Assembly (NCBI GenBank): GCA_041659685.1
Contig: JBAZXV010000007.1
Coordinates: forward strand, 6,348-70,347
DNA length: 64,000 nucleotides
Direction of reading: 5' to 3'
Origin: Parcubacteria group bacterium
GTDB lineage: Bacteria; Patescibacteriota; Minisyncoccia; Moranbacterales; UBA11712
The notes beneath the pieces were generated by a model. The model saw nothing but the letters and a program-made list of their open reading frames with translations, searched no databases and was not told the origin of the DNA. The stretch's first letter is position 1. Each line of letters begins with the position of its first letter. Shown piece by piece: positions 2,943-55,905 of the stretch. A program made the position numbers and the translations under genes.

Positions 2943-3899
2943 TTATATCCTGTGCTCCAGGATCTTTCTGATAAAATGATCTTTCAATTCTTCGCCAGTT
3001 CCCGCGCACAATTGAATTGTGCCTTTTTGGAGCTTGTGCGTCAATTTTCTCGTTAGCATTTTAAAATATATGAACAATTCTATCATTTTGAACTCCCTAT
3101 GCAACTTTTCCGAATCCCCGCTGTATTTTTCCAAATAGGATTTTATCAGATTGTTATGCCACTCAGTCACGCCATATTGATCCGTGAGGGTGCTGACGTG
3201 GGCGAACTCAAATGCGATGGGGGCGATCAGGGATCTGTCCCAGTCGATCAGCGCCTTAATTTTGTTTTCAGAAACAAGGACATTTTTGAAATTTACGTCT
3301 CCGTGCAGAAAACAATGCGGAGAATAATTCTTGAAATATTCATATATTTCCGGCAAGTCGTTGAAGCGCTCTTCCAGTTTTTCAAAAATATTATCAGACT
3401 CCAAAGTACTCTTTATTCTTTTGTGGTATGCAGAGAAGTATTCATAAAGGTCTCTTTTTCCGTTCGGAAACATATCGGAAAAATTTTTCTGTTTGAGGCT
3501 GTGAAGATTGATTAAAAAACCGGAGAGTTCGTTCAGGTTAAATTCACTGCCCGCTACCGCATTGAATTCCTCGGGTTCCAAGATTTCTCCTTCAATGAAT
3601 TCCAAAAAAGTTACATAACCCGGAAAACCGGGGCAAGAATTCAGGCATTTCACGAGTTTCGGGGATTTATCCGGCCCAAGAATATCATTTGCCGTTCTAA
3701 TGGCGGTTTTTTCTTTGAGTCCCTTCCCTCTCTTGAGATCCCATTCGTCAAATCCGATCTTTGCCACAAGTTTTCTGCCGCTTTTAAAATTTATTTTATA
3801 AGCGACGGTCGTTAAAGCGAGCGGAAAAACCGAAAGCTTTTCCAGAATTTCATCCGGGAATTCTTTTTTGATTAGTTTTTTTAACTCGGCTTGGAACAT
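2943..3899 (-). CDS. phosphotransferase-family kinase (aminoglycoside/choline-kinase-like APH fold)
   Basis: Catalytic HGDVNFKNVLV and DWDRS motifs typical of APH/ChoK-like kinases. Confidence 0.7.
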   Translation of the reverse strand: MFQAELKKLIKKEFPDEILEKLSVFPLALTTVAYKINFKSGRKLVAKIGFDEWDLKRGKGLKEKTAIRTANDILGPDKSPKLVKCLNSCPGFPGYVTFLEFIEGEILEPEEFNAVAGSEFNLNELSGFLINLHSLKQKNFSDMFPNGKRDLYEYFSAYHKRIKSTLESDNIFEKLEERFNDLPEIYEYFKNYSPHCFLHGDVNFKNVLVSENKIKALIDWDRSLIAPIAFEFAHVSTLTDQYGVTEWHNNLIKSYLEKYSGDSEKLHREFKMIELFIYFKMLTRKLTHKLQKGTIQLCAGTGEELKDHFIRKILEHRI

Positions 3900-4193: not shown

Positions 4194-5111
4194 TTAGTTT
4201 CCGGGAACAATCAAATCAAACTTTTCTTTTTTGCCATATGCCTTTGGCCCGTAGTCTCGGCAGTAGGCTTCAATATTTTTTTTGAAATAAGGCGGCTTAG
4301 ACTCCTGAATTTTTCCGACAAGATAATAAGTAAGGCAAAGCATAAGACCAAAACTCGCTGAAGTTGGAAGGGCTATATTCCATCGGTGTTTGGGGTGTCC
4401 GAAATATTTGTTTTTTATTCCGATGCCTATAACCAATTCTTTTTCCGACGGGACGACGAATTTGGCATGCCGGGCGTGCCCTTCCGGGAAAGCTCTCAGC
4501 GACAGATGCGATCCAAAGAGCTCGCTTTTTTTGATATCGAGCATTGGGCAGATATTCCCAAATCGATCCGGCAAAACGAAAGTGTAGCTTTGATAAGCGG
4601 AAAAATTTTTCGGAAGCCTCAGTCTTTTTATGAAACTTTTTATTTTCTTTGGATTTTCTCCAGTCGCGGAAAGTATCATTCCAAGGTAAGTTGATACATT
4701 ATATGTATATGGTTCAGCGATTTTACGATAGGCGAATGCCTTGTCTGCGATCTTGGCGGCGGACGATTCGGCGCTGCAAGTCAGAAGCGTGGTTTTCAGT
4801 CTGTACTTTTTAGCAAGCTCTGCTTCCCAGACAGAATCTTTTTCTCCCGAGGCGGAGATGACGATTGCGTCTTTGATCAGCCTTTTTTTGATAATCGGAT
4901 GATAGGAATTAATAATATTTTTGAAATTGCTTTCGTCGGCAAAAATGGCGGCCTTATCAGAAAACAAAATGAGTCCGGTATTATATGCATTGCCGCTGCC
5001 GATCACGAACGGGAGGCTGAATTTTTTCAGATCGAGTCTTGGCGGCTTGTTCTCGGAAAAAAAGTCCAAGGCTTTTACTGTGCTCTCGTTAAGACTGTCG
5101 ATTTTAATCAT
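4194..5111 (-). CDS. SIS-domain protein, possible bifunctional phosphoglucose/phosphomannose isomerase
   Basis: VISASGEKDS...LKTTLLTCSAESSAAKIADKA matches the SIS sugar-isomerase pattern; sits beside GDP-mannose genes; assignment is inferential. Confidence 0.4.
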   Translation of the reverse strand: MIKIDSLNESTVKALDFFSENKPPRLDLKKFSLPFVIGSGNAYNTGLILFSDKAAIFADESNFKNIINSYHPIIKKRLIKDAIVISASGEKDSVWEAELAKKYRLKTTLLTCSAESSAAKIADKAFAYRKIAEPYTYNVSTYLGMILSATGENPKKIKSFIKRLRLPKNFSAYQSYTFVLPDRFGNICPMLDIKKSELFGSHLSLRAFPEGHARHAKFVVPSEKELVIGIGIKNKYFGHPKHRWNIALPTSASFGLMLCLTYYLVGKIQESKPPYFKKNIEAYCRDYGPKAYGKKEKFDLIVPGN

Positions 5112-5551
5112 GAAGATGTTTTAAGGTTTATGCTTTAATTGTAATATAGAAAACGGATTTTTCCAAAGTTGGGCAATTTTATTTTCCAGGAATTTGGCTG
5201 GCGGAGGCTGATATTTTGGATTGCCTGGCGCGGGTATTCAGCTTAAAAACAATAGGGGGTCCGAAACGGCCATTGCAAATGTAGCGATTGTTGCGGCCTC
5301 TCCTGATGCTTTTCGCCGCATGATAAGAAAATTATTTTCGCCGATTAATCAGGCTCCGGACGAAGCAGTCAATAATCGCGTTTCGGACAGGTGTGATTTT
5401 CCGACAAGGATCAGGGCGGGCTTTTTCCTGGCTAGGCGCCAAACGCAGATATTCCCGCTGAAGACAGGACTGCGTCCAGGGGAATTTACGAGAAATCAAA
5501 AAATATGCATTCGTAATTTATGGCTTATAAATAGGATAATAATACATGGGG

Positions 5552-5579
5552 TTGACACCTGTTTTTCATGCGTTATCAT
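5552..5579 (+). promoter_or_regulatory. sigma70-like promoter (TTGACA-16-TATCAT) for the RHH-nucleotidyltransferase gene
   Basis: TTGACA at 5552-5557 and TATCAT at 5574-5579, about 50 nt upstream of the ATG at 5632. Confidence 0.45.
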
Positions 5580-5631
5580 AAGGTAGTGATTCGTATGATG
5601 ATATCATAATTTTAATTTTTAAATAAAAAAA

Positions 5632-6462
5632 ATGCTTCGCCAAAGGCTAACGATAACGCTGGACGATCAACTCTTGTCAAAAATAGACAAACGGGTTGAC
5701 GGGCATAAAATCCGGAATCGGTCCCATGCCATCGAATCGATTCTGAATGAAAAACTTCAAAGCAAGATTCTCAAAAAAGCAATTGTGCTTGGCGGCGGGA
5801 AGGGAATTGAATTCGAAGGCAAGACGATTTCCAAACTGCTCCTTCCCATAAACGGTAAATCGCTTATTGAAAAAAACATCGAAATTTTGAAAGAGCACGG
5901 AATCACTGATTTGATTTTATCTTTAGGGGGGCTGGGCGATCAGATACGGGAAAAACTTGGAGACGGATCCAAATATGGCATAAAAGTATTATATTTTGAA
6001 CGGGATCGGGGCACGGCGGGCGTTTTGAGGCAGGCCAAAAGCATTTTGGATGAGACGTTTTTAATGATGAACGGCGACATATACCTTGAGAATATTGATC
6101 TTTTGGATATGTATGATTTTCACAAAAATCGCAAAGCTAAATCAACAATTTTATTGACTACCATAGACGATCCTTCTCTTTTTGGTTCAGTATTGCTAAA
6201 GGGTGATATCATTAAAAAGTTTTCCGAAAAACCGCGTCCGCAGGAATCTTATTCTCACTTAATTAACGGCGGAGTCTATCTTTTTGAGCCCGAAGTTTGC
6301 TCCATGGTTTCCCCGGAAACCATTTCTCTCGAAGGCGATATCTTTCCAAAGCTGGCTGAAGATCATAAGCTTTACGGATATTTCCTTGATAACCGATGGA
6401 TCCATCTTCACAACAAGGAAAAGTACTCCGAATATATTAATTTGATAAGGGAACAAAAATAA
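5632..6462 (+). CDS. ribbon-helix-helix (CopG-like) domain fused to a sugar-phosphate nucleotidyltransferase fold with a degenerate catalytic motif
   Basis: N-terminal RLTITLDDQLLSKIDKRV...RSHAIESILNE (RHH); then LGGGKGIEFEGK where GxGTRL is expected (TRL lost); NTP_transferase-like remainder. Confidence 0.65.
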   Translation: MLRQRLTITLDDQLLSKIDKRVDGHKIRNRSHAIESILNEKLQSKILKKAIVLGGGKGIEFEGKTISKLLLPINGKSLIEKNIEILKEHGITDLILSLGGLGDQIREKLGDGSKYGIKVLYFERDRGTAGVLRQAKSILDETFLMMNGDIYLENIDLLDMYDFHKNRKAKSTILLTTIDDPSLFGSVLLKGDIIKKFSEKPRPQESYSHLINGGVYLFEPEVCSMVSPETISLEGDIFPKLAEDHKLYGYFLDNRWIHLHNKEKYSEYINLIREQK

Positions 6463-7535
6463 TGAAGTGTGTTATCATGGCAGGCGGAAAAGGGACGAGG
6501 CTTTGGCCGATCAGCCGCAAAGAAAGGCCAAAACAATTCCAGTGTCTCTTTTCGGAAAAAACAATGCTGCAGGAAACATTTTTGCGGCTTCGCAAGAAAT
6601 TCGATCTTAAAGATATTTATGTTTCAACCAACGAAGAATATGTCAGTGAAGTAGAGAGGGAGGTTCTTGAACTGCCCAAGGGAAATATTATAGGGGAGCC
6701 GGCATCCCGCGGGTCGGCGGCAAGCATTGCCTTAACAGCGGCTGTTTTATCCAAGCGTGATGGTGACGAATCGGTGGCATTTTTCCCCGCGGATCACTAT
6801 ATCAAAAACCCAGAGGTGCTGATCGATGCCTTAGGCGCGGCAGATCGATTCCTGGAAAAAAATCCGGACAGCATAATGACTTTTGCGATTAACCCGACTT
6901 CCCCCGAAACGGGCTTTGGCTACATAGAAAAAGGAGATATATTGGAAAAGGAGAATGAATTTGAGGTATTTAAAACCAAAAGGTTCGTGGAAAAACCGGA
7001 TATGGCGACGGCGCAGAAATATCTTGATTCCGGAAATTTTTTCTGGAGCAGCGGTATGTATGTGATGAAAATGAAATCGGTAATCAAGAAATTTGAAAAA
7101 TACATTCCCGATACCTATAACAGGCTGATAAGCATAAAAGAATCGGTAGACACTGAAAAATATCAAGATGTCCTGCTGGAAGAATATCCGGAAATGGACA
7201 AGATAGATTTCGCGTTCAGTATTGTGGAGAACGACGATCAGGTGGTGGTGATGCCCCTCGCGCTTGAGTGGAGCGACGTGGGCTCCTGGGCATCTCTCAA
7301 GGACACGCTGATCAAAAACGGAAGCGACCATTTTGTGAAAGGGGAACATATTGATTTTGAAAGCGAAAACCTGCTGGTTTACGGCGCAAAAAAACTTATT
7401 ACTACCATTGGTGTTAAGGATCTGATTATCGTGGACGGGGAAGATTCAATATTGATTTGTGACCGCAACAAAGCGCGCCTTGTTTCCGACGTGGTAAAAA
7501 AACTTGAAGAATCTGGAAAAATTTCTCTGTTGTAA
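6462..7535 (+). CDS. manC: mannose-1-phosphate guanylyltransferase (GDP-mannose pyrophosphorylase)
   Basis: MAGGKGTRLWPISRKERPKQF N-terminal signature; 357 aa; ATGA overlap with the upstream gene. Confidence 0.85.
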   Translation: MKCVIMAGGKGTRLWPISRKERPKQFQCLFSEKTMLQETFLRLRKKFDLKDIYVSTNEEYVSEVEREVLELPKGNIIGEPASRGSAASIALTAAVLSKRDGDESVAFFPADHYIKNPEVLIDALGAADRFLEKNPDSIMTFAINPTSPETGFGYIEKGDILEKENEFEVFKTKRFVEKPDMATAQKYLDSGNFFWSSGMYVMKMKSVIKKFEKYIPDTYNRLISIKESVDTEKYQDVLLEEYPEMDKIDFAFSIVENDDQVVVMPLALEWSDVGSWASLKDTLIKNGSDHFVKGEHIDFESENLLVYGAKKLITTIGVKDLIIVDGEDSILICDRNKARLVSDVVKKLEESGKISLL

Positions 7536-7553
7536 ATATTCATATTTAAAATA

Positions 7554-8558
7554 ATGGAAAAACCAAAAGTATTAGTAACTGGCGGAGCCGGTTTTATCGG
7601 ATCGAATTTCAGCAATATCAACAAAGATAAATACGACATTGTTGTTCTCGATAATTTATTGATGGGCGATCCGGATAATATAGAGGATAAGGAAAAGATA
7701 AAATATATTAAGGGCGATGCGTGCGAGATCGAAGATCTTCAAAAATGCGGAAACAGTTTTGATTACGTCATACATCTTGCCGGCACCTCGACAGCCCCCC
7801 TTTTTATGGACAAAGGTTTCGTTGACGGCTATGTGAATTCGGTAAAGAGTTTCGTGCGGGCCCTGGAGTATGCCCGCGAGTCGGGAGCGAAAAAATTTCT
7901 TTACGCCTCGACTTCATCGCTTTATGGAAATAATCCGGTTCCGCTGACTGAAGATCAGCATGTGGTTCCGCCCAATCATTATTCTGTCACGAAACAGCTT
8001 TATGAAAATTGTTCGGCTTGCTACCAAAAGGTGTATTCGGAAATGGACATAATCGGCTTTCGTTTTATGTCTGTGTATGGACCAAACGAGGAGGCGAAGG
8101 GGCCTTTTGCGAACATTATCTCTCAGTTTATTTGGGATATTGTCCGAGGCCGTTCGCCGATAATTTATGGTGACGGATCGCAATACCGGGATTTTACCAA
8201 TGTTCGCGATGTTGTGCAGGGTTTGACACTTGCCATTGAAACGAAAGAGCCTCTGGGGAATGAAGTCTTTAATATCGGGACGGGAGAGTATGCTTCGCTC
8301 AAAGAGATAGCAGAAATGATTAACATCGAAGCGCGAAAGCATGGTATCGAAAAACTGGAACCGGAACATATTCCAAATCCTGTAAAGGAAGGTTATGTAA
8401 AATCACAATGCGCGGATATTTCCAAGATCAGCCGGCGGTTGGGATATAATCCCAACGTGAAGCTGAAAGAAGGAATTTCAGAACAAGTGGCCAATGTGAA
8501 GAAAGATAAAATTCGAAAAACAAGTTCGGATCTTCTTCGAGAAAAAAAAGGTTCTTAA
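7554..8558 (+). CDS. NAD-dependent epimerase/dehydratase family protein
   Basis: Rossmann VTGGAGFIGSNF; catalytic S..YxxxK (STSSLYG ... HYSVTKQLYE). Confidence 0.85.
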   Translation: MEKPKVLVTGGAGFIGSNFSNINKDKYDIVVLDNLLMGDPDNIEDKEKIKYIKGDACEIEDLQKCGNSFDYVIHLAGTSTAPLFMDKGFVDGYVNSVKSFVRALEYARESGAKKFLYASTSSLYGNNPVPLTEDQHVVPPNHYSVTKQLYENCSACYQKVYSEMDIIGFRFMSVYGPNEEAKGPFANIISQFIWDIVRGRSPIIYGDGSQYRDFTNVRDVVQGLTLAIETKEPLGNEVFNIGTGEYASLKEIAEMINIEARKHGIEKLEPEHIPNPVKEGYVKSQCADISKISRRLGYNPNVKLKEGISEQVANVKKDKIRKTSSDLLREKKGS

Positions 8559-8640: not shown

Positions 8641-10005
8641 ATGGAAACAAAAAAATCGGACAGCTTGAACGAAAAAATTTTCAAAGCCTATGACATTCGG
8701 GGGGTTTATCCCGATGAAATTAATGAAGATGCGGCGTATCTGATCGGAAAAGCATTTGTTGAATTTTTGGGCTGCAAATCTGTTGTAGTCGGGCGTGATA
8801 TGAGAAAATCTTCGCCCAGCCTTTTCGAATCGCTTGTGAAGGGGATCACCGAGCAGGGAGCGGATGTGATTGATATAGGAATGGTTGCGACGCCAATGCT
8901 CAGCTTTGCTGTCATGCAGTGGAACAGCGAGGCCGGAATCATGGTGAGTGCGTCCCATAATCCGGCGCAGTACAACGCTTTCAAACTAATCCAAAACAAG
9001 AACGGTCTTGCTCTTCAAATATACGGAGGCGGCGGCATAGATGAAATAAAAAAAATATGCATTGCGTCAGAGTTCAGGAAATCAGAGAAAAGGGGGACAG
9101 TTGAAAAAAAATCGATAAATGAAGATTACAAAAGCCGTCTGCTGTCGGTCGCTCAGGGCATAAAAGATCTGAAGATAGTCTGTGACTATGGAAACGGCGT
9201 CGGTTCAATTTCTGCCATGCCCGCACTGGATGTGCTTCCAATAAAAGTTACGCATATGTTTGCCGAACCCGACGGTGACTTCCCAAATCACGCTCCGAAT
9301 CCTCACGATATTGAAAACTTGATTTTTCTCCAGAAAAAAGTTGTCGAAGAAAAAGCTGATCTTGGAATTTTTTTCGACGGAGACGCTGATCGGAGCCAGT
9401 TGGTAAACGAAAAAGGAGAAATTATCTTTCCAGATATGGCGCTGGGCATTTTAGCGCTTGAAGAGCTGGCCAATAAGGGGAAAGGCAAGGTTTTTCACGA
9501 CCTTAGATTTACCAAGGCTGTTTCAGAGAGCATAGGGGAGCACGGGGGCGAAGCGGTGATGATGAGGGTTGGGAACCCTTTTTACAAGGAAGCTCTGAAT
9601 GACGAACAAGGACTGCTCGCAGGAGAGTTTTCGGGGCACATAATGTTCCGCGAATTTTATGGCATTGATGACGGTCTGTATTCCGCCCTTAAATTCATGA
9701 GTATAATGTGCAAGCAAGGAAAAAAAGCCAGCGAACTCGCAATTCCCTTTCAGAAATATTTTCAAACTGAAGAGATAAATATGAAAGTTTCGGACGCAGA
9801 TGCGGCAATGGACAAGGTTAAAGAAAAATATTCAGGCGGGAAACTTATTGCGATTGACGGGATCCTGATCGATTCCGGAGATTGGTGGCTGTCGCTTCGA
9901 AAATCAAACACTGAACCGCTGGTGAGGCTTCGGATCGAGGCAGAAAAAAAAGAGATACTGGACGAGAAGCGCAAGGAAGTGCTTTCCGTGATAGAGTCGG
10001 CCTAA
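8641..10005 (+). CDS. phosphomannomutase/phosphoglucomutase (alpha-D-phosphohexomutase)
   Basis: Active-site SASHNPAQYNAFK, metal-binding FDGDADR loop; 454 aa. Confidence 0.85.
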   Translation: METKKSDSLNEKIFKAYDIRGVYPDEINEDAAYLIGKAFVEFLGCKSVVVGRDMRKSSPSLFESLVKGITEQGADVIDIGMVATPMLSFAVMQWNSEAGIMVSASHNPAQYNAFKLIQNKNGLALQIYGGGGIDEIKKICIASEFRKSEKRGTVEKKSINEDYKSRLLSVAQGIKDLKIVCDYGNGVGSISAMPALDVLPIKVTHMFAEPDGDFPNHAPNPHDIENLIFLQKKVVEEKADLGIFFDGDADRSQLVNEKGEIIFPDMALGILALEELANKGKGKVFHDLRFTKAVSESIGEHGGEAVMMRVGNPFYKEALNDEQGLLAGEFSGHIMFREFYGIDDGLYSALKFMSIMCKQGKKASELAIPFQKYFQTEEINMKVSDADAAMDKVKEKYSGGKLIAIDGILIDSGDWWLSLRKSNTEPLVRLRIEAEKKEILDEKRKEVLSVIESA

Positions 10006-54484: not shown

Positions 54485-54556
54485 GTCCTTGTAGTTCAAT
54501 GGATAGAACACCAGCCTTCTAAGCTGGTTATGCAGGTTCGATTCCTGCCGAGGACA
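54485..54556 (+). tRNA. tRNA-Arg (anticodon TCT)
   Basis: GTCCTTG/CGAGGAC acceptor, anticodon loop CTTCTAA, T-arm GCAGGTTCGATTCCTGC. Confidence 0.8.
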
Positions 54557-54559
54557 CAT
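54542..54559 (+). repeat. 18-nt direct repeat, copy 1 (3' end of tRNA-Arg, ttcctgccgaggacacat)
   Basis: Exact second copy at 54661..54678, about 100 bp downstream. Confidence 0.6.
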
Positions 54560-54660
54560 CGAACGGGAAAGGGGTCGGGAAAGCGGGAGTTTTCCCGGGG
54601 TGGAAGAATTGAAACCGCAGGGTTTCAAGGAGCTCCGCCAGCCGGCAGAGCGACGTTCGC

Positions 54661-54678
54661 TTCCTGCCGAGGACACAT
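54661..54678 (+). repeat. 18-nt direct repeat, copy 2 (duplicate of the tRNA-Arg 3' end)
   Basis: ttcctgccgaggacacat identical to 54542..54559; no tRNA body precedes it. Confidence 0.6.
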
Positions 54679-54698
54679 AATAGGCATAAAAATATTTT

Positions 54699-54771
54699 GC
54701 GTCGTTAGCTCAGTTGGTAGAGCAGGGGACTCTTAATCCCAAGGTCGCAGGTTCGATCCCTGCACGACGCA
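54699..54771 (+). tRNA. tRNA-Lys (anticodon CTT)
   Basis: GCGTCGTTAGCTCAGTTGGTAGAGC... close to the E. coli tRNA-Lys scaffold; anticodon loop CTCTTAA. Confidence 0.85.
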
Positions 54772-54822
54772 CAGAAATGATTCCCAAAATATTCACAATT
54801 TATATTTTAGATGTGAATTTAT

Positions 54823-54894
54823 GGCGGCCATCGTTCAATGGCAGGACATTGGGTTGTGGTCCCAAGAACCTGGGTTCGATTCCCAGTGGCCGCC
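54823..54894 (+). tRNA. tRNA-His (anticodon GTG) with encoded G-1
   Basis: Extra 5' G pairing with discriminator C; anticodon loop TTGTGGT; T-arm CTGGGTTCGATTCCCAG. Confidence 0.85.
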
Positions 54895-54906
54895 CAAGAA
54901 ACAAAA

Positions 54907-54931
54907 AACATTCCCTTGGGAATGTTTTTTG
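54907..54931 (+). terminator. rho-independent terminator after the tRNA cluster
   Basis: aacattccc-ttg-ggaatgtt followed by TTTT. Confidence 0.65.
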
Positions 54932-54954
54932 CTGCCTGAATGTCGAAGTTGATA

Positions 54955-55026
54955 TCTGAGATTGTGTCCCCGCGAGGAATCGAACCTCGATTTCAGGCTC
55001 CGCAAGCCTACGCTCTATCCGTTGAG
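54955..55026 (-). tRNA. tRNA-Arg (anticodon GCG, provisional)
   Basis: Minus-strand GTCCCCGTAGCTCAACGGATAGAGCGTAGGCTTGCGGAGCCTG...CGAGGTTCGATTCCTCGCGGGGACA; loop TTGCGGA with G37. Confidence 0.65.
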
Positions 55027-55099
55027 CTACGGGGACGTATATTCTTTGCCTGTATGCCAAAAATCTTAAAGCCTGTGGAAAATACAAGACAGACTATAA

Positions 55100-55669
55100 T
55101 CACAATCCGATTATTCTCTCAAGTCTGTCGATTATTGTCAATTCCTGCCTGATTTCGGGCAAGTATTGAACGAGGACTTCCCGAATTAAAATCGGATTGG
55201 CGGTTCCAATCGGTACGTGAATATGAGGAAGGAAATTTTTTTTACTGTGAAGGCTCAGAATCTTTATATTTTCTTCTGTCTCATAAAATATCCAGAAACT
55301 CTTGAGATCTTCAAACCGGTAAAAATAATTGTCGACCCGCACTCCGTCAGGGCTTATATCCATTTGAATATTCCGCGGTTCCCGTTCGGCGTAAACGTAG
55401 CCCAGGGTGCCGATTAGTATGAAAGTTATGGCCATTAGAATACTGTTTGTCACCAGCGCATAAACGATCACGGCGAGGAGTATTCCGCCCATTGTGAGAT
55501 ACCAGCGGGGATGCTTTTCTTCATGGTCGTATTCAGGCGCTTCCCAGGAAAACGACGGTTCGTCTTCTTCGATATTTTGAATATCCGCTTCCTGATTTTT
55601 TCCTGGATGCGAAGACTGGGCATAAGGCCTTCTGACGGCTTGGCGATTTTTATTTTTTGAAACTTCCAT
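55100..55669 (-). CDS. hypothetical membrane protein (2 TM, charged N-terminus)
   Basis: 189 aa; no recognisable catalytic motif. Confidence 0.4.
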   Translation of the reverse strand: MEVSKNKNRQAVRRPYAQSSHPGKNQEADIQNIEEDEPSFSWEAPEYDHEEKHPRWYLTMGGILLAVIVYALVTNSILMAITFILIGTLGYVYAEREPRNIQMDISPDGVRVDNYFYRFEDLKSFWIFYETEENIKILSLHSKKNFLPHIHVPIGTANPILIREVLVQYLPEIRQELTIIDRLERIIGL

Positions 55670-55705
55670 TGATATTGATATTCGGATTATTTATTTTTTC
55701 GTAAT

Positions 55706-55795
55706 TGGCGGAGGAGGAGGGATTTGAACCCCCGGTACCTTTTCAGGTACTCCGGTTTTCAAGACCGGTCCATTCAGCCGCTCTGGCACTCCTCC
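55706..55795 (-). tRNA. tRNA-Ser (anticodon TGA), CCA encoded
   Basis: Minus-strand GGAGGAGTGCCAGAGCGGCTGAATGG...CTTGAAA loop, long variable arm, T-arm GGGGGTTCAAATCCCTC, 3' GCCA. Confidence 0.85.
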
Positions 55796-55814
55796 ATGAG
55801 GGAATATACTCATT

Positions 55815-55905
55815 CGGAAGGGGAGGGATTCGAACCCTCGATACGGTTTTAACGCCGTATAACAGGTTAGCAACCTATCGCTTTCAGCCTCTCAGCCACC
55901 CTTCC
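55815..55905 (-). tRNA. tRNA-Ser (anticodon GCT)
   Basis: Minus-strand GGAAGGGTGGCTGAGAGGCTGAAAGC...TTGCTAA loop, long variable arm, T-arm GAGGGTTCGAATCCCTC, discriminator G. Confidence 0.85.

Follow-up and report, generated by a model that had tools for sequence, protein, structure and literature searches.

A predicted ribbon-helix-helix regulator with a degenerate nucleotidyltransferase domain at the head of a putative GDP-mannose operon in a Parcubacteria genome

A 64-kb stretch of the genome of a Parcubacteria group bacterium (contig JBAZXV010000007.1; the whole stretch is hereafter called the window) carries, immediately upstream of a manC gene, the subject of this work: a predicted transcriptional regulator in which a ribbon-helix-helix (RHH) DNA-binding domain is joined to the fold of a sugar-1-phosphate nucleotidyltransferase (NTase). 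Its open reading frame (ORF), at 5632–6462 on the forward strand (+), starts with ATG and encodes 276 amino acids (aa). The TAA stop (6460–6462) and the ATG of the next ORF have one A in common (TAATG), and the first-pass annotation of the window had correctly placed the start of a canonical manC at this overlap. The ORF in question (6462–7535, +; N-terminus MKCVIMAGGKGTRLWP) matches Pfam NTP_transferase (E = 3.5e-41) and ManC_GMP_beta-helix (E = 1.2e-16) as well as NCBIfam TIGR01479 (292 bits), and encodes a ManC-type mannose-1-phosphate guanylyltransferase with a beta-helix domain and no phosphomannose isomerase (PMI) domain. It is followed by a putative third operon gene for an NAD-dependent sugar-nucleotide epimerase/dehydratase (7554–8558, +; Pfam Epimerase and GDP_Man_Dehyd, with every NCBIfam match under its cut-off), which occupies the same position in the related loci L001, L010 and L037, and by a putative fourth for a phosphomannomutase/phosphoglucomutase (PMM; 8641–10005, +; four PGM_PMM domains), in a gene order repeated in L010/L037. 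Neither an internal promoter nor a terminator could be identified convincingly between 6462 and 10005, and the regulator, manC, epimerase and PMM genes presumably form one operon.

Profile searches and structure prediction bear out the earlier reading of the N-terminus as an RHH. The domain comprises aa 1–48 (5632–5775, +), with a beta-strand R5-L-T7-I-T9-L and helices at residues 12–21 and 30–43. NCBIfam NikR models match residues 4–48 (E ~1e-6), whereas Pfam RHH_1, taken alone, stays slightly under its gathering score of 20.5 (residues 5–42, 19.2 bits, E = 1.1e-3) and is matched at E ≤ 0.01 by 39 of 88 family members. When a profile built from 23 N-termini of the family was compared with the PDB, exclusively RHH proteins were matched: E. 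coli NikR (7.5e-7), CopG (2.4e-3), P. horikoshii NikR (0.013) and the RHH antitoxin Rv0298. In an AlphaFold2 (AF2) model the two helices lie behind an extended N-terminal segment, the model being that of a monomer and the RHH strand pairing in the dimer only. The putative DNA-contact strand R-x-T-x-T aligns with the NikR strand; R5 and T9 are invariant in the family and T7 nearly so. Base contacts in NikR are made by Arg3, Thr5 and Thr7, of which we take R5, T7 and T9 to be the equivalents. By profile and model, the N-terminal domain is thus a NikR-type RHH, for which we infer DNA binding. The NikR models nevertheless cover the N-terminus alone, far below their cut-off, and in place of the C-terminal ACT-like tetramerisation domain of NikR, with its His/Cys nickel site, residues 49–276 adopt the NTP_transferase fold; judged on these features, the window protein has a NikR-like DNA-binding module but is not a NikR. 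Two further readings of the N-terminus were considered and rejected. As to an RHH antitoxin from a toxin–antitoxin system, none of the neighbours seen resembles a toxin, and a NikR-like RHH with a 228-aa domain attached speaks against it; the notion that an error in gene calling or a frameshift had fused a small RHH gene with an NTase gene is contradicted by the ~275-aa fusion being kept in hundreds of independent assemblies.

The remainder of the protein, aa 49–276 (5776–6459, +), is a sugar-1-phosphate NTase-fold domain of the short form, with no C-terminal beta-helix, in agreement with the fold first proposed for it. Pfam NTP_transferase (PF00483) matches residues 49–257 with E = 8.7e-25, while all NCBIfam scores are far under the curated cut-offs. 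The AF2 model, built from an 88-sequence alignment, reached a predicted local distance difference test score of 90.2 and a predicted template modelling score of 0.83. Its top Foldseek matches were tlr0611 (8x7s), the GDP-mannose pyrophosphorylases VTC1 (7x8j/7x8k) and GMPPB (7d72), and RmlA, with a probability of 1.0 for VTC1, GMPPB and RmlA and a query-normalised template modelling score of ~0.7. The best sequence and structure matches are short sugar-1-phosphate NTases, 25–29% identical.

Residues were mapped on Arabidopsis VTC1 using a HMMER alignment and a 195-sequence MAFFT alignment. In VTC1, pyrophosphate is contacted by G9, T12, R13 and K23, the catalytically critical residues are D111, E195-K196 and D219, and GDP-mannose is contacted by G85, G146 and N173 (PMC9168903). 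Counting as catalytic T12, R13 and K23 plus the four critical residues of that study, four of the seven are replaced in the window protein: T12 by I59, R13 by E60, K196 by G235 and D219, at the Mg site, by H258. The other three are kept as K68 (K23), D149 (D111) and E234 (E195), G9 corresponds to G56, and all three ligand-contact positions are retained (G127, G185 and N212 for G85, G146 and N173). The replacements cluster in two motifs. GGGKGIEF (aa 54–61; 5791–5814, +) stands in place of the signature loop GGxGTRLRP, and over GGGKGIEFEG, read against G-x-G-T-R-x-x-P, Thr has become Ile59, Arg Glu60, Arg15 Glu62 and Pro16 Gly63. WIHLH (aa 256–260; 6397–6411, +) replaces the metal-site motif W-x-D-x-G, its Asp having become His258 and its Gly His260. 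The loss of the signature Arg from GGGKGIEF, noticed in the first pass, is therefore confirmed by alignment with VTC1, and the comparison with structures that had been suggested as a check adds the Mg-site Asp and K196 to the residues lost.

The same pattern runs through the window's own clade, referred to below as clade B (68 non-redundant members). At the signature Arg position, none of the 68 has Arg (Glu in 31, Thr in 8, Lys in 8, Asn in 7, Asp in 6, others in the rest), the signature Thr is Ile, Val or Met in 63, and 62 have His in place of the Gly two residues past the lost Asp; at the Asp position itself, His is the trait by which the clade was defined and hence provides no independent count. 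W-I-H-L-H is, on this alignment, a new conserved motif of clade B. Meanwhile G85, D111, G146, E162, K163, N173, E195 and W217 (VTC1 numbering) are kept in 66–68 of the 68 members and K23 in 63. A ligand pocket that is kept while the chemistry residues are lost across 68 members is the pattern expected of a ligand-binding pseudoenzyme: the pocket would be under selection with the chemistry gone, and we infer that catalysis has been lost. Lost catalytic residues, a kept pocket (with ligand binding predicted), fusion to a DNA-binding domain and linkage to the genes of a pathway come together in the window protein, as is characteristic of transcription factors with pseudoenzyme sensors.

Upstream of the gene we identified a predicted sigma-70-type promoter (5552–5579, +) with TTGACA at 5552–5557, a 16-nt spacer and TATCAT at 5574–5579; it agrees with the consensus at 11 of 12 positions, this being a consensus match alone and the start site a prediction. 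Downstream of it lies the main operator candidate, GTATGA-N5-TCATAA, with inverted NikR-type half-sites (5593–5609, +; 23–39 nt 5′ of the ATG; in full GTATGA-TGATA-TCATAA), which is the sole operator-grade site in the 64-kb window. A search of the window for further regulon members at up to two mismatches yielded weak intragenic matches only. An auxiliary candidate half-site, TCATAA (5576–5581, +), lies within cgTTATCATAAg and overlaps the -10 box, and the direct repeat TATCATAA occurs at 5574–5581 and 5602–5609. When the upstream sequence is aligned with those of the clade-B loci L009 and L036, TTGACA and the -10 region do not vary, and CGTTATCATAA is identical in all three; indeed, the -35 box, CGTTATCATAA and the palindrome are the only invariant elements of that alignment.

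The arrangement recurs widely among the relatives. A 7-1-7 palindrome, TATGATR-N-YATCATA, stands 25–45 nt before the start in L009, L036, L010/L037, L001/L002, L038 and L118 (in L118 it is perfect: ccGTATGAtactaTCATACgg), and across clade-B promoters the GTATGA-N5-TCATA[AC] half-sites are kept while central and spacer bases vary. Elsewhere the half-sites are placed differently: the clade-C locus L119 has two ATCATAC followed by two TATGAT, 10 nt apart within each pair, L003 has two GTATCATAC repeats 10 nt apart, and many D-type genes (defined below) have tandem TATGAT-N4/5-TATGAT with repeats 10–11 nt apart. Paired half-sites were found in 28 of 79 non-redundant family upstreams, as opposed to 10 of 311 upstreams of other ORFs at the same loci (Fisher p = 5e-14); against strictly intergenic controls away from the family gene, the counts were 25 of 79 and 3 of 157 (odds ratio 24, p ~1e-10). 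With an N5 spacer, the centres of the two half-sites lie 11 bp from each other, which is the geometry of two adjacent RHH dimers in Arc- and CopG-type repressors. The E. coli NikR operator is GTATGA-N16-TCATAC (PMC7055735), so that the half-site GTATGA/TCATAC is the same here, whereas its spacing differs, being N5 or tandem at 10–11 nt rather than N16.

These observations bear on the simplest alternative, namely that the protein is an ordinary active NTase as annotated, with an N-terminus that serves dimerisation or stability and TATGAT boxes that are promoter elements. In public annotation it does go under the name of sugar phosphate nucleotidyltransferase or of NDP-sugar pyrophosphorylase, its RHH_1 score is marginally sub-threshold and TATGAT is similar to a -10 box. 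However, the N-terminal profile finds nothing other than RHH DNA-binding proteins, with NikR best, and the DNA-contact strand is conserved; the upstream motif occurs in pairs of fixed spacing, is palindromic, equals the NikR half-site and is 24-fold enriched over intergenic upstreams; and the catalytic residues are replaced. We regard this alternative as highly improbable.

The fusion, described in the first-pass annotation as a non-standard architecture, is unannotated but by no means rare, as the database search suggested there has now shown by turning up a large family. The window protein is identical to a protein of a Parcubacteria metagenome-assembled genome annotated 'sugar phosphate nucleotidyltransferase', and has hundreds of ~275-aa relatives, each with the same N-terminal RHH. 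A metagenome scan confirmed at least 561 of them, and an exhaustive HMMER search on the RHH alone gave 149 cluster representatives at 50% identity. All in all, RHH-NTase fusions number at least several hundred in metagenomes of bacteria of the candidate phyla radiation (CPR) and DPANN archaea, the two lineages of tiny symbionts over which the fusion is spread. We found no published description of an RHH-NTase fusion in the full-text literature searched, the coverage of which is thin for subscription journals, so that absence is unproven. Neither the combination of modules nor the family, with its operator and phyletic niche, appears to have been described before; the principle itself is familiar.

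Sequence motifs divide the family into groups. Group A is canonical (GGKGTRxRPxTYExPKP, GTAG, NGD, EKP, WxDTG) and has as its named sources Altiarchaeota, Woesearchaeota, Nanoarchaeota and Aenigmarchaeota; every catalytic residue is kept in 52 of 52 members, except the variable K196. In group D, Lys (31) or some other residue (19) takes the place of the signature Arg, and the Asp residues remain; group B is the window's clade; and in group C, GD has become GH and W-x-D has become W-x-R. Finally, a remnant set of 201–223 aa has the same RHH followed by a remnant of the fold from which the signature, GD and EKP motifs have been lost, although comparison with the family by hhalign is clear (99.2%, E = 1.4e-19). 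In six of the remnants (P0170, P0172, P0182, P0221, P0175 and P0190) GTGAAL and SLEExTFP remain, and Pfam detects the RHH only. The remnants look, from their motifs, like the end point of a decay from enzyme to sensor. In a neighbour-joining (NJ) tree of the NTase columns rooted on VTC1, which is crude and has no support values, group A is basal, followed by a ladder of D-type groups and a pure B+C clade of 79. This topology fits a stepwise release from catalytic constraint in a lineage that would have been RHH-fused ancestrally.

Genomic context ties clades B and C to GDP-mannose synthesis. Among clade B/C loci with enough sequence to judge, ManC is encoded immediately downstream on the same strand in 11 non-redundant loci: the window, L001, L009, L010, L036, L038, L116, L117 and L118 in clade B, and L005 and L119 in clade C. 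The exceptions are L040 and L003/L004, the latter with two convergent ManC-PMI genes. The downstream gene in L116 encodes a ManC-PMI-epimerase fusion; otherwise an epimerase gene usually stands behind manC, and in some loci a PMM gene as well. In six loci with canonical Altiarchaeota-type members, by contrast, PMM comes directly next and no second guanylyltransferase adjoins, which fits the canonical members being the pathway enzyme themselves; from the residues they keep, they are probably enzyme-repressors.

Could the window protein be one too? It might still make a sugar nucleotide, from another substrate or with a His-based metal site, while binding its own promoter in the manner of BirA or PutA. 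D149, K200, K68, E234, N212 and the GTAG loop are conserved, the (near-)invariant His258 and His260 could ligate a metal, and its canonical relatives provide a probable model for such dual function. Weighing against this are the loss of Thr12, Arg15, Pro16 and K196 in addition to the signature Arg, which is Glu here and never Arg in the 68 clade members; in the 52 canonical members the lost signature positions are (near-)invariant, K196 being variable there. Moreover, the complete, translationally coupled ManC directly downstream in 11 loci would make a second guanylyltransferase redundant, and further relatives without the GD and EKP motifs show that the lineage tolerates catalytic loss. A bifunctional enzyme-repressor is thus unlikely in our estimation.

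The tight translational coupling with manC across clades also raises the possibility of a non-catalytic regulatory subunit of ManC, similar to the GMPPA/GMPPB pair, that inhibits its partner by contact when bound to GDP-mannose, with DNA binding secondary or absent. There is a precedent: GMPPA is described as an inactive NTase paralogue that senses GDP-mannose and exerts feedback on GDP-mannose synthesis (PMC11228364), and GMPPA/GMPPB structures are among the fold matches of the window protein. Yet GMPPA and GMPPB assemble mainly via C-terminal beta-helix domains (PMC9168903), of which the window protein has none; an RHH and a matching operator, both strongly conserved, would be needless for a purely allosteric subunit; and the ManC genes of L003 are on the opposite strand. 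We therefore consider this reading quite improbable as the main function, although contact inhibition of ManC and the transcriptional role that we favour can coexist.

It had been suggested that the regulator derives from the very enzyme it regulates, but this part of the earlier reading fails. Alignment of the window protein with the adjacent ManC gives no more than 26% identity over 113 residues, and the window protein lacks a match to TIGR01479 or PF22640, both of which the neighbour matches. The two belong to different NCBIfam lineages, the regulator being Rv3264c/GMPPB-like and the neighbour of the TIGR01479 ManC type; canonical family members likewise score best with the Rv3264c-type mannose-1-phosphate guanylyltransferase model, below its cut-off. 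Low identity and different lineages together imply an origin of the sensor domain other than duplication of the adjacent gene, and a recent duplication of manC was rejected on these grounds. Instead, the comparisons point to older NTases, fused to an RHH and apparently active, as the lineage from which the sensor domain stems.

Taken together, we propose with moderate confidence that the gene at 5632–6462 encodes an autoregulated, ligand-sensing repressor of the regulator–manC–epimerase–PMM operon, with a pseudoenzyme as its sensor. The NikR-type RHH would bind the GTATGA/TCATAC half-sites at 5576–5581 and 5593–5609, so that the protein, a one-component transcription factor, would sit as a dimer of dimers on its own promoter, over the -10 box and the start region, the N5 spacing setting two RHH dimers one helical turn apart. 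Binding would repress the four-gene operon of regulator, manC, epimerase/dehydratase and phosphomannomutase. The C-terminal 228-residue NTase fold would no longer catalyse but bind a pathway metabolite, either a sugar nucleotide or a sugar phosphate, acting as an effector-sensing and oligomerising module that tunes DNA affinity. As ligand we favour GDP-mannose, since the nucleotide-sugar pocket residues are kept, the partner gene makes GDP-mannose and GMPPA senses GDP-mannose with the same fold; acting as a co-repressor, it would provide end-product feedback. On this reading the protein descends from RHH-fused intact NTases, perhaps enzyme-repressors like BirA or PutA, with catalysis apparently handed over to a separate ManC in the window's clade. 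The core of the first-pass idea, a DNA-binding regulator of the GDP-mannose operon with a catalytically degenerate NTase as its effector domain, is thus supported in silico by every test applied, namely by the NikR-type RHH, the loss of four of seven catalytic residues, the operator candidate in its own promoter and the manC linkage, with loss of activity, DNA binding and ligand as its predicted components.

Several points weigh against this proposal. Every step of it is computational, from DNA binding and repression to loss of activity, ligand and sign of response, and the tree behind the evolutionary series is crude. D149, K200 (the EKP Lys), K68 and E234 are retained, and His258 and His260 could in principle hold a metal, so that some residual or altered catalysis may persist. 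The resemblance of TATGAT to a -10 hexamer means that the upstream enrichment could partly reflect promoters; the paired fixed spacing and the intergenic control argue against such an artefact but do not remove it. None of 21 canonical archaeal members has paired sites of the tested geometry, so that autoregulation may not be universal in the family, or the geometry may differ there. The weakest links are ligand and direction of response, mannose-1-phosphate or GTP as inducer being equally compatible with the sequence. In addition, the clade-B member of L040 is followed by a PfkB kinase gene (L040:885-1922) rather than manC, and D-type members (Arg to Lys or another residue) adjoin glycolytic genes, for GAPDH (glyceraldehyde-3-phosphate dehydrogenase), PGK (phosphoglycerate kinase), a ROK kinase and an APH-like kinase; given these neighbours, the ligand may differ from GDP-mannose in some members, or even here.

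Some observations on the relatives are of interest in their own right. Upstreams of canonical Altiarchaeota-type members (L006:6880-7000, L055:367-468, L051:3860-3979) have no N5 or tandem half-site pairs and share a conserved element, ATCATATAATGTACCACGCTGTATGAG, in which TCATA and TATGA stand as a pair ~16 nt apart; this may be a differently spaced operator, closer to NikR spacing. Carbohydrate-metabolism neighbours of Arg-to-Lys/x members are found at L066:1733-2737, L052:4833-6050, L060:2261-3178 and L087:2677-3687, and many of these members, with that of L040 counted among them as a group, have tandem TATGAT boxes upstream. This context suggests that the family regulates more than GDP-mannose synthesis.

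Around the operon itself, the divergent upstream neighbour of the regulator (4194–5111, reverse strand) encodes a 305-aa protein in which a SIS domain is barely discernible (Pfam E = 0.036) and for which the PDB has no sequence match; it is conserved as divergent neighbour with 86% identity in L010/L037 and 68% in L038, and may be a sugar-phosphate isomerase of the same pathway that shares the regulatory region. Its assignment as a bifunctional phosphoglucose isomerase/PMI found no support, as there were only weak SIS and HxlAB matches and no similarity to the bact-PGI_C protein of L003. An APH-family phosphotransferase (2943–3899, reverse strand; Pfam APH, E = 8.3e-15) is encoded close by, and in L087, too, a family member has an APH-like gene behind it. 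AmgK and other anomeric sugar kinases of the APH fold are partnered by NTases, MurU among them; by analogy, the protein could be a sugar-1-kinase that supplies the pathway. From the SIS-like gene to the regulator the spacer measures 520 bp, an unusual length compared with only ~165 bp in L010/L037, and the part at 5112–5551 has a GC-richer core at ~5180–5490 (50% G+C, against 43% for the window). In this part no credible match to an ORF family and no conservation in related loci were found, and it may be what is left of a decayed gene or of an insertion. The possibility that the spacer holds an RNA element was considered and dismissed (a chance-level Rfam match only, a folding z-score of 0.13 and no conservation in related loci). 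Further afield, six tRNA genes lie on both strands within 1.5 kb at 54485–55905 of the window (Rfam gathering matches), and L001:1777-3177, a few kb upstream of the regulator on a 204-kb Parcubacteria contig, holds a bAvd and reverse-transcriptase pair, the hallmark of a diversity-generating retroelement and unrelated to the system described here.

More broadly, and more tentatively, at somewhat less than an even chance in our judgement, the RHH-NTases may constitute a major family of transcription factors, overlooked until now, that respond to carbohydrates in CPR/Patescibacteria and DPANN archaea, with a NikR-type head on GTATGA boxes and every stage from enzyme to sensor preserved: active canonical archaeal enzyme-repressors beside PMM, Arg-to-Lys forms beside GAPDH, PGK, ROK and PfkB, a dead repressor of the GDP-mannose operon, and 210-aa remnants. 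To our knowledge, almost no transcription factor has been characterised in these lineages with their tiny genomes. A regulator common to the whole family, its operator predicted (GTATGA boxes) and its class of effector a candidate one, would make regulation in CPR and DPANN testable in vitro although the organisms are uncultured; its targets would be genes of GDP-mannose synthesis in the present genome and of glycolysis in relatives. Versions that are intact, half-degenerate, dead or vestigial, all on one DNA-binding head, would also provide a natural series from enzyme to sensor. In practical terms, hundreds of entries named 'sugar phosphate nucleotidyltransferase' or 'mannose-1-phosphate guanylyltransferase' are probably regulators, which affects metabolic reconstructions of CPR and DPANN.

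Of the known systems, NikR (PDB 1q5v, 2hzv) is the closest solved relative of the RHH, with which it has the strand R-x-T-I-T-L and the NRSxAI helix in common, and its layout is the same: an N-terminal RHH, a C-terminal domain for ligand binding and oligomerisation, and repression of a promoter, here predicted. The resemblance ends at the C-terminal domain, where a ~228-aa GT-A/Rossmann-like NTase fold stands in place of the ~80-aa ACT-like nickel-binding domain, and at the target, a sugar-nucleotide operon rather than nickel uptake; the effector would presumably be a sugar nucleotide, not a metal. With the short sugar-1-phosphate NTases (the Rv3264c/GMPPB catalytic domain, tlr0611 (8x7s), RmlA, MurU and HddC) the window protein shares its fold and most substrate-pocket residues, but GxGTRxxP, K196 and the Asp of W-x-D-x-G are replaced and an RHH is added at the N-terminus. 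GMPPA (PDB 7d72), among the fold matches, is likewise an NTase-fold pseudoenzyme of the same structural lineage; it binds GDP-mannose and exerts feedback control, and for the window protein both are predictions. GMPPA is, however, eukaryotic, acts allosterically in a hetero-oligomer via beta-helix domains and has no DNA-binding domain, whereas the window protein has an RHH, lacks the beta-helix domain and would act on transcription. A DNA-binding domain joined to an enzyme or former enzyme fold that reports the status of a pathway is familiar from PutA (which itself uses an RHH domain), BirA, the ROK repressors Mlc and NagC, and NrtR. We know of none among these that uses a sugar-1-phosphate nucleotidyltransferase fold, and their sensor domains are not homologous to the present one. 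Within this set, the canonical members of the family resemble the bifunctional cases, while the clade to which the window protein belongs resembles the pseudoenzyme cases.

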